Of a DNA stretch of 32,000 nucleotides, positions 14,560 through 20,115 are shown piece by piece (position 1 is the stretch's first letter; each line of letters starts with the position of its first letter). This DNA is from Candidatus Lokiarchaeum ossiferum. GTDB lineage: Archaea; Asgardarchaeota; Lokiarchaeia; Sigyniarchaeales; Promethearchaeaceae. The notes under the pieces were generated by a model. That model saw nothing but the letters and a program-made list of their open reading frames with translations, was not told where the DNA came from and searched no databases. The position numbers and the translations under genes are program-made. The DNA is taken from positions 240,001 through 272,000 of the forward strand of contig CP104013.1 of NCBI GenBank assembly GCA_025839675.1, written 5' to 3'.

Positions 14560-17500
14560 TTGAAAATCATGTCTCATAAAACTTACACAAAACTGGAAGC
14601 TATGCTTAAGGAGTTAGTACAGTTAATAACATCCGAAAATTTTACATATGAAACAAATTATTATGCTCAAATTCTCTTTATTCATGAAATATCTGTTTCA
14701 TTGAAGAATCAATCATCTTTGGGAAAAAGTATTGAAGGAAAAATCAAGAGTATTTTAGATTATTTATTGCAAAATAAAATTGAAGAGATTCCTCAAGATT
14801 TATTGGATGAAGAAAAAATTCAAATACTGAAATTAGGAATTAATAAATTTTTAAACATAAATAATTTTAACGCAGCAGACAAAGGTCTTCAACTATTAGG
14901 GAACATTAAATCAGAAAATAAATTCGCTATAATATATCAAACACGCTTGCTCTGTAATCAAAATAAGTTTAAAGACGCTAGGGTGAAATTAAATCAAATT
15001 CAAATCCCAAATAAAAAAACTGAAAAATACTTGTTTTTCTCAACAAAATTTAATATCTTGGTTCAGAAATCTAACATTGAAGAATGGAAAAATTTTGAGA
15101 AACAAATAAAAGAATATATCCCAGATGATGTTTCTCTTGCAAGAATGACTTCAATACAGATATATAAATTGGAAGGAGAATTCGAGAAAGCAATTTCATT
15201 ACAACAAGAGGTAATTAATGAACTAAAAGCGCATGAAGATACCCATTCTTTTGTTTATTCAGCAGAATATAATACTTTGGGTTTAATCTATCTATATGCA
15301 AGAAAATTTGAAAACGCAATTCAGAGTTTTAAAACTTCTATAGAATACAACCCCACTTCTTTAAATCTTAAATTCCAACTTGGAAATGCTTATGAAAGCA
15401 GAAGAGATTATCAAAGAGCAATAAAAATATATACAGAAATCCTGCAAATCGATCCTTCAAATCCAAAAGTGGTTACTACTCTTGCAAATATGATTTCTCG
15501 AGATGGAAATCCCGATAATGCGATAAAAATGTACCGAAAACTTATGGACAATAAATCTTATGTTGAGCAGAATGGATATTTTTTCAAAAATTTAGCTCTT
15601 GCATATTTTCGTAAGGGAGACTTCAAAAATGCAGAAATAAATCATAATATTGCTATTGAAAAAGATCCAAACAATCATCAATTCTATTATCATAGAGGAA
15701 CATTTTATTTACACTCAATGAAATACAATAAGAGCAAGCATGATTTGTTAAAAGCAATTGAATTGTTTCCCTCTCATCCTGATTATTGGAATCAAATCGG
15801 CAATGTTTATTTGAATCAAAATTTAGTAGAAGATGCAACAACAGCATTCCAAGAATGTGTAAAATTAGATCCAATCCATTTTTCTGCATTATTTAATTTG
15901 GGATTAGTTCATTATTTTCAGAAAAAACCAAGTATTGCCTTAAAATTTCTTCAAAAGGCTGAAAAATCATGCCCTTCTCAATTTCTTGTCTATTTTTATC
16001 AAGGAGTTATTCATCTGAAAAATATTCAATATAAAAAAGCCTCCAAATGTTTTTTAATTGCATTAAAACTGGAGAAACCAACTAAATTAATGCAAGAACG
16101 CTTTGAAAAGTTTGAATTAGATATTTTATGTGGGCTGTACCATTGTCATTTTGAATTACAACAAAATGAAGAAGCTCTTACTATTGGTCAAACACTCATG
16201 AAAAAAACCGAAAAAAATATTGAATCTAATGAAATTTTTGTTTCAAATATTGAATCTGTTCAGGATCCAACTTCTTTTTTATTAATCATAAAGCGAAATT
16301 ATGCTGTTCTATTAGAACGGATAGGAAAGTATGAAGAAGCTATCGAAATCTTAAGCGATCATCGACCTTCAAATTCCTTCTTATTTGATGAGAATCACAA
16401 AGAAAGATGTTTTCAATTGACTAGTATTATGTACTTGCATAAAAAAGAATATATTAATGCCAGAAATGCAATTTGGCATGCATTATCTAATCGGGAAAGT
16501 TCACTCAGTTACTTCATTTGTGGTTTCATTGAATTCAAACTTAAAACTCAAGATTCCCAGAAAAATTTTAAGGTTTCTGTTCAGATATTATATGAAAGTC
16601 AAGTAAATCTATTCCTTTATTTTGAAAACTTGAAGATTTTATTTGAATTTTGTGAAAAATTCCATTTCACATCTTCTTTTAAAAAAATTAGTGCATTTCA
16701 ACCATCCTTTGCTCAACTCACACAAAAAACTTCTTCTATAGAACAATTTAACATTATTCCATATCAACTATGGTATAAAATAATCATGTTTAGCATCTGT
16801 ATTGATTCTACTCAAGAGTTTATGATTGAGAAATTGGAAGAATTAAATGAACGATCTCAAAGCAAATTTTCCGAATGGTTAGATTATTGGGAAATGTTAT
16901 TACATCTAGGGATTAAGTATAAAAAAACACAAAAAATCAAAAGAGTCCTAAAAAAAATGTTTGCACTTAATCCGAACTATAAAATCAGATCTAAATTATG
17001 GAACAATGAAATAATTGGCAAACAAGAAGTTCTAAAGCTAAAATTAAGCGAAAAAATAAAACAACAAAAGCAAGTTGATTTAACAGAAGAAAGATATGTT
17101 TTTAAATTTAGAGATCGTGGTTTTTGGCACAAAGGGGACTATTACATTATTTTAGATACAGGAGAAACTGGAAGTGAATTTCGTGAAGGTCCGAATAATT
17201 ATTATATTAAGGATCAAGTTGATTTAGGTTTATCCTCTAAAAGAATGGGACTTAATACTAATGATAATATAAATGAAGAGGAAAAACAGAAATTTCAAGA
17301 ATTAATGGAGAATTTGCATACTCAAGTATTTTTAACGGATAAAACCGAAACCAATTTTCAGTCTAATCTCACTGAATTATTCGGAATGAATAATTCTGGG
17401 ACGATGAACTATTTCTTGTCAAAAGACGATATTCAAGCTATTAAAGAATATAATGAAATCATCAAAAAATCACCGGAGTACCTAAAACAATATGGGATAA

Positions 17501-20115: not shown

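Follow-up and report, generated by a model that had tools for sequence, protein, structure and literature searches.

As far as we are aware, the known antiviral STAND proteins (signal transduction ATPases with numerous domains) act by killing or arresting the cell through fused effectors, and prokaryotic viperins have been regarded as enzymes that work alone, with no account of how they are regulated. STAND proteins that act as transcription factors dependent on nucleoside triphosphates have a precedent in bacteria (PMC7159879), and AfsR has the architecture SARP, NOD, TPR (PMC10936776). Most defence STANDs use TPR-like sensors, and many STAND clades are non-immune (PMC13581612). The gene considered here encodes a giant STAND-like protein of the archaeon Candidatus Lokiarchaeum ossiferum. 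It lies in a stretch of 32,000 nucleotides (GCA_025839675.1, contig CP104013.1, positions 240,001 to 272,000; hereafter the window), divergently from an operon for an NYN RNase and a prokaryotic viperin. The protein belongs to a rare family that travels with a specific G-rich dyad and, in two very distant loci, with genes for a viperin-class radical-SAM (radical S-adenosylmethionine) protein and an NYN RNase. The favoured reading, to which a probability of about 0.4 is given, is that the STAND protein is an AfsR- or MalT-like, ligand-gated regulator of the adjacent NYN-viperin cassette.

A rare STAND family and a recurring dyad

The genes and elements on which the argument turns are the following.

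13079 to 13969, minus strand: prokaryotic viperin (radical SAM); PADLOC pVip, 7e-68; NCBIfam viperin_w_prok, 233.6 bits against a cut-off of 180
13970 to 14446, minus strand: Zc3h12a-type NYN RNase, first gene of the divergent operon; PF11977, 3.1e-9
14462 to 14492, no strand assigned: dyad 1, TCTTGGGG-N15-CCCCAAGA, 15 nt from the NYN ATG (14446, minus strand)
14517 to 14547, no strand assigned: dyad 2, TCTGGGGGG-N15-CCCAAGA, 21 nt from the STAND ATG (14569)
14569 to 20115, plus strand: giant STAND-family open reading frame; frame and translation, with the same protein in public data

The plus-strand reading frame is uninterrupted from 14560 to 20115 and counts 1851 codons from a TTG at 14560, the length given in a preliminary description of this DNA. 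That TTG is a mechanical start; the likely start is the ATG at 14569, with the stop at 20115 and a product of 1848 amino acids (aa). An identical 1848-aa protein is present on a public 70-kb Logan assembly contig. The divergent neighbours named in the same description hold up, both on the minus strand: the NYN gene is of the Zc3h12a type, and the viperin, well above its model cut-off, carries the radical-SAM CxxxCxxC motif as CNYHCKFC. The intergenic region is rich in inverted repeats, as had been said, and measures 122 bp between the divergent ATGs.

The family is very small. An exhaustive HMMER search with aa 830-1848 against 1.84 billion cluster representatives recovered only five homologues besides the protein itself (P0002 to P0006; E 1e-23 to 9e-8, 22-28% identity). 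Word-indexed protein searches with aa 830-1848 or with a six-sequence core alignment returned nothing and missed the members themselves as well; the same kind of search with an alignment of P0004 and P0005 returned only these two. When GTDB genomes were scanned with the core protein no relative appeared, and scans of viral contigs gave no family member.

The closest parallel to the window is locus L003. There P0003 lies on the same strand, 36 bp after an NYN gene that itself follows a radical-SAM gene, so that the three form an operon-like row; one of the five homologues thus sits with MoaA/viperin-class radical-SAM and NYN genes. For the L003 radical-SAM protein the highest-scoring class is MoaA-like (118 bits, below cut-off), followed by viperin (66 bits). 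Its gene (2569-3626) has the irregular cysteine motif CNYRCSFPYSKKLWCHSC in place of CxxxCxxC, and its C-terminal part is in a second, overlapping frame; this may reflect a frameshift, a pseudogene or a non-canonical set of cluster ligands. The L003 NYN domain is of the PF01936 type and has no detectable similarity to the window NYN. At locus L002, a GIY-YIG gene and a divergent 130-aa gene of unknown family (3797-4189, minus strand) lie upstream of P0002. P0004, at L004, is preceded by a 272-aa gene of unknown family (2207-3025, plus strand). P0005 stands alone, with an integrase nearby, and the contig of P0006 is too short for its gene context to be judged. By eye, the 130-aa protein of L002 has an Smr-like motif (IIHGYRNGT) and the 272-aa protein of L004 a PD-(D/E)xK-like motif (D…ELEYK); a Pfam search gave no match for either.

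An inverted-repeat search of the homologues' intergenic regions led to a dyad with the consensus TCTKGGGG-N15-CCCCMAGA. Two copies are present in the window, one before each divergent start codon. In L003 the form is TTCTGGGGG-N15-CCCCCAGA(A), again in two copies, one 14 nt before the start of the radical-SAM gene and the other 48 nt before that of the NYN gene. In L002 a single CCCCCAGAA-N16-TTCTGGGGG lies in the region that separates the STAND gene from its divergent neighbour. When a relaxed pattern was counted and compared with 1000 dinucleotide shuffles of each locus, the observed and expected counts were 2 and 0.007 in the window, 2 and 0.006 in L003, and 1 and 0.002 in L002, and the half-site occurs almost nowhere else on these contigs. 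The dyad is thus found in all three low-GC family loci. Apart from STAND the three have no gene family in common, and their STAND proteins are only 22-23% identical. No dyad was found at two Promethearchaeum loci (L008, L009) that have viperin or viperin-NYN genes and lack the STAND gene. The link between the STAND gene and the viperin operon, first suggested from the shared promoter alone, is therefore better supported than it was when proposed, given the dyad in three loci and the radical-SAM and NYN pair beside P0003. The dyad may be regarded, from its sequence and distribution, as a new candidate cis-element.

A metagenome scan with the pattern TTCTGGGGG-N15-16-CCCCCAGAA was uninformative on the archaeal dyad. 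It was swamped by a nested palindromic repeat, …CCCCCAA TTCTGGGGG N16 CCCCCAGAA TTGGGGG…, which occurs well over 100 times on contigs of microbial-mat metagenomes (L021-L140; GC 45-53%; probably cyanobacterial by sample type). This repeat has the G5/C5 core in common with the archaeal dyad and is otherwise unrelated to it, as are the two low-GC matches of the same scan; G5/C5 palindromes arise in other contexts too.

Domain order, NTPase and N-module

The STAND protein (numbered from the ATG; all features on the plus strand) is laid out as follows.

14569 to 15093, plus: N-terminal 175 aa; no Pfam match
15094 to 16083, plus: canonical TPR array, aa 176-505, about seven Pfam-detected units; TPR_1/TPR_2, about 1e-41
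16084 to 17367, plus: degenerate TPR-like stretch and unconserved linker, aa 506-933; TPR_12 below threshold at 18 bits, homologues unaligned
17368 to 18354, plus: family-conserved N-module with winged-helix-like units, aa 934-1262; alignment, model topology, Foldseek and weak helix-turn-helix (HTH) matches
18358 to 18633, plus: P-loop NTPase core, aa 1264-1355; nSTAND_NTPase5 match and EfAvs5 fold match
18385 to 18408, plus: Walker A, GEIGCGKS, aa 1273-1280, with K1279; translation and alignment
18517 to 18540, plus: Walker B, LIIIDNID; translation and alignment
18634 to 19722, plus: conserved post-NTPase helical region, aa 1356-1718, with hhhT.R and GNP-type motifs; alignment and model, no Pfam match
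19723 to 20112, plus: short C-terminal tail of 130 aa; the homologues have 344-377 aa of TPR-like repeats here

The preliminary description had seen about 800 aa of canonical TPR repeats, a motif-less middle of about 430 aa and a P-loop module. The last lies where it was placed, with Walker A and Walker B at the coordinates listed above. The canonical array is real and is confined to aa 176-505; the first 175 residues match nothing, and aa 506-829 reach only the 18 bits of TPR_12. The middle divides in two: in the family alignment aa 830-933, approximately, are an unconserved linker, and aa 934-1262 are a module kept in the homologues. That middle segment had also been put forward as one candidate effector; it resembles winged-helix units rather than an enzyme. 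A PD-(D/E)xK motif in the N-module was considered and rejected because the alignment has no conserved acidic/lysine triad. Pfam, NCBIfam and PADLOC found no enzymatic domain in the protein, whole or in segments, and a Pfam scan of its last 421 residues in pieces gave no match. GC skew moves from about -0.06 and -0.02 over window positions 15001-17000 to +0.18 over 17001-18000, at the junction of N-terminal extension and core, which is compatible with a separate origin of the extension.

The core shared by all six sequences corresponds to aa 934-1718 of the window protein and comprises the N-module (about 330 aa), then the P-loop domain and, last, the helical region. Outside it the members differ. 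The N-terminal extension is longest in the window protein, with 933 aa; P0003 has 579 aa of it, P0004 has 142 aa, and the remaining three homologues have 5-26 aa. A C-terminal tail of 344-377 aa, faintly TPR-like, is found in five of five homologues and is cut to 130 aa in the window protein; P0003 combines a TPR-bearing N-terminal extension with a long C-terminal tail. All five homologues follow the canonical STAND order of N-module, NTPase, helical region and TPR-like tail. The inverted, NLR-like architecture claimed for the window protein is thus only half correct; it fits the N-terminal TPR array and does not extend to the relatives. Since the homologues keep the TPR-like tail and the window protein alone has it shortened, the inverted layout is a lineage-specific rearrangement of the canonical plan, with P0003 as an intermediate. 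The homologues are extremely rare and lie in variable, defence-type contexts, unlike core genes with conserved synteny. The family is best described as a new, very rare and previously undescribed STAND subfamily with a variant of domain order.

The NTPase can be placed among the STANDs, if narrowly. PF25199 (nSTAND_NTPase5) matches aa 1264-1355 with 35.4 bits against a gathering cut-off of 34, a marginal score over about 90 residues, and nSTAND3 and AAA_22 are weaker Pfam matches. Among the homologues P0005 scores 34.0 bits, exactly at the cut-off, and P0004 26.4 bits; no PF25199 match was recorded for the remaining three. In the alignment the G, G, G and K of Walker A (GxxGxGK[ST]) are invariant in six of six sequences, as are the I and the first D of Walker B. 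At the next position three sequences (the window protein, P0002 and P0003) have N and the other three (P0004 to P0006) have D. A sensor-1-like hhhT.R motif (VIATIRSE) and GNP-type motifs ('NGN/DGNP') also align across the family. An AlphaFold2 model of the core, built from the six-sequence alignment, has a predicted local distance difference test score (pLDDT) of 55.9 overall and of 70-85 over the NTPase. Its top Foldseek match in the PDB is the SIR2-STAND protein EfAvs5 (PDB 9jap; E 1.4e-7), with generic AAA+ clamp loaders and Clp ATPases close behind; the TM-scores to EfAvs5 are low (0.25) because the core model is poor. A phmmer search against the PDB gave no relative. The P-loop module does not group with housekeeping ATPases, and its reading as a STAND-like NTPase is upheld by the threshold nSTAND5 match, the four motifs and the fold match; on its sequence the domain qualifies, marginally, as nSTAND5. 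It has the same STAND-type Walker A and B, hhhT.R and GxP-like motifs as the PF25199 clade, whereas its flanks, the winged-helix-like N-module and the post-NTPase helical region, match no Pfam model. Where the superfamily has a C-terminal repeat sensor, the window protein has only its 130-aa tail, and its clear TPR array is N-terminal; the difference is one of layout and does not touch the NTPase.

Several lines bear on the nature of the N-module. It holds a GRISETYLEL motif and a basic helix, ADRRGRVKRK, followed by an 'L..W.IL' wing, and a pattern typical of winged helices, '…basic helix…L..xGLL…(L)T..(A/G)K.L..A'. A model of the module (target P0005; pLDDT 52.6) has helix-helix-helix-hairpin (H-H-H-beta-beta) units, and its top 50 Foldseek matches are almost exclusively winged HTH transcription factors (E 0.1-0.6), among them BirA, PefR/MarR, CAP, PF0095 and CadC/SmtB. 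The N-module profile matches the HTH domains of ComA and of a DeoR-type regulator (E 0.09-0.9), and single family members give faint Pfam hints of Sigma70_r3 and Fe_dep_repress. The basic R.GRVK/RSRLDK helix is present in all three proteins whose loci have dyads and absent from the three whose loci do not. Fold, profile and sequence pattern, each sub-significant alone, agree in weakly suggesting a winged-helix-like module.

A proposed regulator of the cassette and rival readings

If the favoured reading is right, the TPR-bearing N-terminal extension would be the presumed ligand sensor, and its repeats would bind a signal that, in this defence island, is probably derived from a virus. Binding would release the nucleotide switch; the STAND protein would then oligomerise through its P-loop domain, and its winged-helix module would act on the TCTKGGGG-N15-CCCCMAGA dyads, 15-21 nt upstream of both divergent start codons. 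Both the NYN-RNase/viperin operon and the STAND gene would change in expression as a result, by activation or de-repression. We infer from the features above that the N-module binds DNA, that it binds these dyads and that the input is viral. Recognition of the dyads by the conserved winged-helix-like module is the most economical reading and is offered tentatively. It is unlikely, in our estimate, that the protein is in full an NLR-type STAND with a putative DNA-binding module of its own, triggered by infection and switching on the viperin and RNase cassette through a dedicated operator.

The resemblance to AfsR and MalT lies in plan rather than in sequence. The usual order of the present family is likewise a putative winged-helix module, NTPase and helical/TPR repeats; the repeated sites would likewise adjoin the promoters of adjacent genes; and the presumed common logic is oligomerisation gated by ligand and nucleotide. 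In contrast, the window protein has no sequence match to SARP/BTAD or to the OmpR-type or LuxR-type HTH, its main TPR array is N-terminal, and its host is an archaeon with a TBP/TFB promoter system. AfsR binds direct repeats, whereas the sites described here are inverted repeats with 15-nt spacers. The neighbouring viperin is a bona fide pVip, and differs from the known pVip systems, which occur with or without a nucleotide kinase, in having an NYN RNase instead of a kinase as its partner gene.

A number of observations weigh against a STAND regulator of this kind. The evidence for a DNA-binding fold is weak throughout (pLDDT 52-56, Foldseek E 0.1-0.6, profile E 0.09-0.9), no Pfam DNA-binding family, SARP, OmpR and LuxR included, matches the protein, and the helix that follows the clearest HTH (…GIDTAMVDGLL…) is not basic. 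The dyad sample amounts to three loci; the higher-GC loci L004, L005 and L007 have no shared dyad, and an upstream motif search there gave chance-level 8-mers only. Neither the radical-SAM gene nor the NYN gene of L003 is orthologous to its counterpart in the window, and co-location of genes in defence islands is common. A scan for sigma-70 promoters and terminators stayed at shuffle level, the model being sigma-70 and the host archaeal. Finally, the dyads can form RNA hairpins of -10 to -17 kcal/mol, and the arms of the L002 copy are everted, an arrangement simpler as a hairpin than as a fixed site for a dimer.

The last two points lead to a rather improbable alternative, in which the dyads are RNA stem-loops of 5' leaders, with G:C-rich stems of 8-10 bp and loops of 15-16 nt, and act post-transcriptionally, for instance as targets of, or protective structures for, the Regnase-like NYN RNase, or as translational gates; the STAND gene would be linked to them by common control only. 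RNases of the Zc3h12a type do recognise stem-loops, and all five elements, 14-48 nt upstream of start codons, fold stably as RNA (z-scores -1.8 to -3.9), the everted L002 copy still giving a perfect 10-bp stem. Yet L002 has a dyad and no NYN gene on its contig, viperin-NYN pairs that lack the STAND gene also lack the element, the loop or spacer sequences are not conserved, and an Rfam scan of the window gave no match. Dyad 2 of the window joins two otherwise valid half-site variants, TCTGGGG and TCTTGGG, and so contains an internal G.A mismatch, which breaks base pairing yet fits a tolerated position in a protein half-site.

A serious rival, though we consider it somewhat unlikely, would make the protein an Avs-like antiviral STAND with effectors in separate genes: the TPRs would recognise a viral protein and the oligomer would activate a nuclease by contact (the NYN RNase in the window and in L003, the GIY-YIG protein in L002), the winged-helix-like module would be an adaptor or oligomerisation surface, and the dyads would be ordinary operators of another regulator. 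Small nuclease genes do adjoin three family members (NYN, NYN and GIY-YIG), but P0005 stands alone without one. Like the Avs/AVAST proteins, to which its best fold match EfAvs5 belongs, the window protein is a large STAND, has TPR-like repeats and is encoded in a defence island; pVip, an LmuB-like SMC ATPase, SLFN-AlbA_2, PLDc_2, DUF6602 and an AbiJ_NTD4/TIR-like gene all lie within 10 kb of it, and TPR-like sensors prevail among defence STANDs (PMC13581612). Its repeat array, however, lies N-terminal of the NTPase, no effector (SIR2, nuclease, TIR, protease) is fused to it, and the PADLOC Avs models are unmatched, the sole PADLOC match being mad8 (17.2 bits, E 7e-4). With no model match and no fused effector, the protein appears to fall outside Avs. 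This alternative also leaves unexplained why the dyad follows a rare family across loci whose proteins are only 22-23% identical. The same recurrence tells against mere coincidence, a very improbable reading in which a STAND/TPR protein with a non-defence regulatory or scaffolding role happens to lie in a variable island. Non-immune STAND clades are numerous (PMC13581612), and three of the six family members have no radical-SAM/NYN neighbour in the DNA available; but the trio of radical-SAM, NYN and STAND genes recurs at a locus where the STAND protein is only 23% identical, the shared dyads precede effector genes and not only STAND genes, and the distribution of the family is rare and patchy.

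The defence island and its meaning

The window has a G+C content of about 29%, and tRNA and Rfam scans of it found nothing. Among GTDB species genomes, the nearest relatives of its viperin are two copies in a metagenome-assembled genome of Promethearchaeum sp., an Asgard genus, with 48-49% identity. One of these (48% identical; L009, 666-2352) is followed by an NYN gene homologous to the window NYN (28% identity, E 9e-13), in an order reversed relative to that at 13079-14446. On these two loci, viperin and Zc3h12a-type NYN appear to be a conserved, recurring gene pair in Asgard archaea, which is new. The second Promethearchaeum viperin (L008, 1857-8249) has an RNase III/dsRBD gene on one side and a bpMoxR-VWA ternary-system pair on the other, and an OLD-family ATPase is encoded close by; that locus is another dense archaeal defence island. 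No public record of the exact window viperin sequence was found, and phage records held only radical-SAM proteins distant from it. In the viperin literature compared, no mention was found of an NYN partner, a STAND neighbour or an operator for prokaryotic viperins, and the association of the rare STAND with viperin-class radical-SAM and NYN genes and the dyad appears to be undescribed.

The defence-island genes upstream of the NYN-viperin operon are those for DUF6602, a PLD-like protein (PLDc_2), an LRR protein, SLFN-AlbA_2 and an AbiJ-NTD4/TIR-like protein. Within this set, at 8482-10594, the SLFN-AlbA_2 gene (4e-15) is divergent from that of a 339-aa protein that weakly matches AbiJ_NTD4, PDC-S32 and TIR-effector models; the two genes may form another defence unit. 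On the other side, at 20366-23813 on the plus strand, come a 680-aa LmuB-like SMC/AAA_23 ATPase (PADLOC LmuB, 4.8e-19) and then two unknown genes that overlap, of 192 and 271 aa; no LmuA effector is recognisable in this gene set, which may be a Lamassu-like variant. At 2437-2856, plus strand, a 139-aa protein has a DTGAD motif and sub-threshold matches to gag-asp_proteas (25 bits) and RVP (19 bits), both of the retroviral-type aspartyl protease kind.

Even read conservatively, the locus adds a STAND subfamily with a domain-order variant, an Asgard viperin-NYN pair and a candidate cis-element. The proposed sensor, switch and target promoter all lie within 7 kb, so that control of a prokaryotic viperin becomes directly testable. 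On the fuller and unlikely reading, in which the receptor on sensing infection itself switches on the cassette, the protein would be the first transcription factor of the STAND class to be linked with antiviral defence and with archaeal promoters; in a single prokaryotic protein it would parallel the route by which animal pattern-recognition receptors induce viperin. Should the STAND protein read the dyad, an inducible immune circuit working at the level of transcription would exist in the archaeal lineage closest to eukaryotes.

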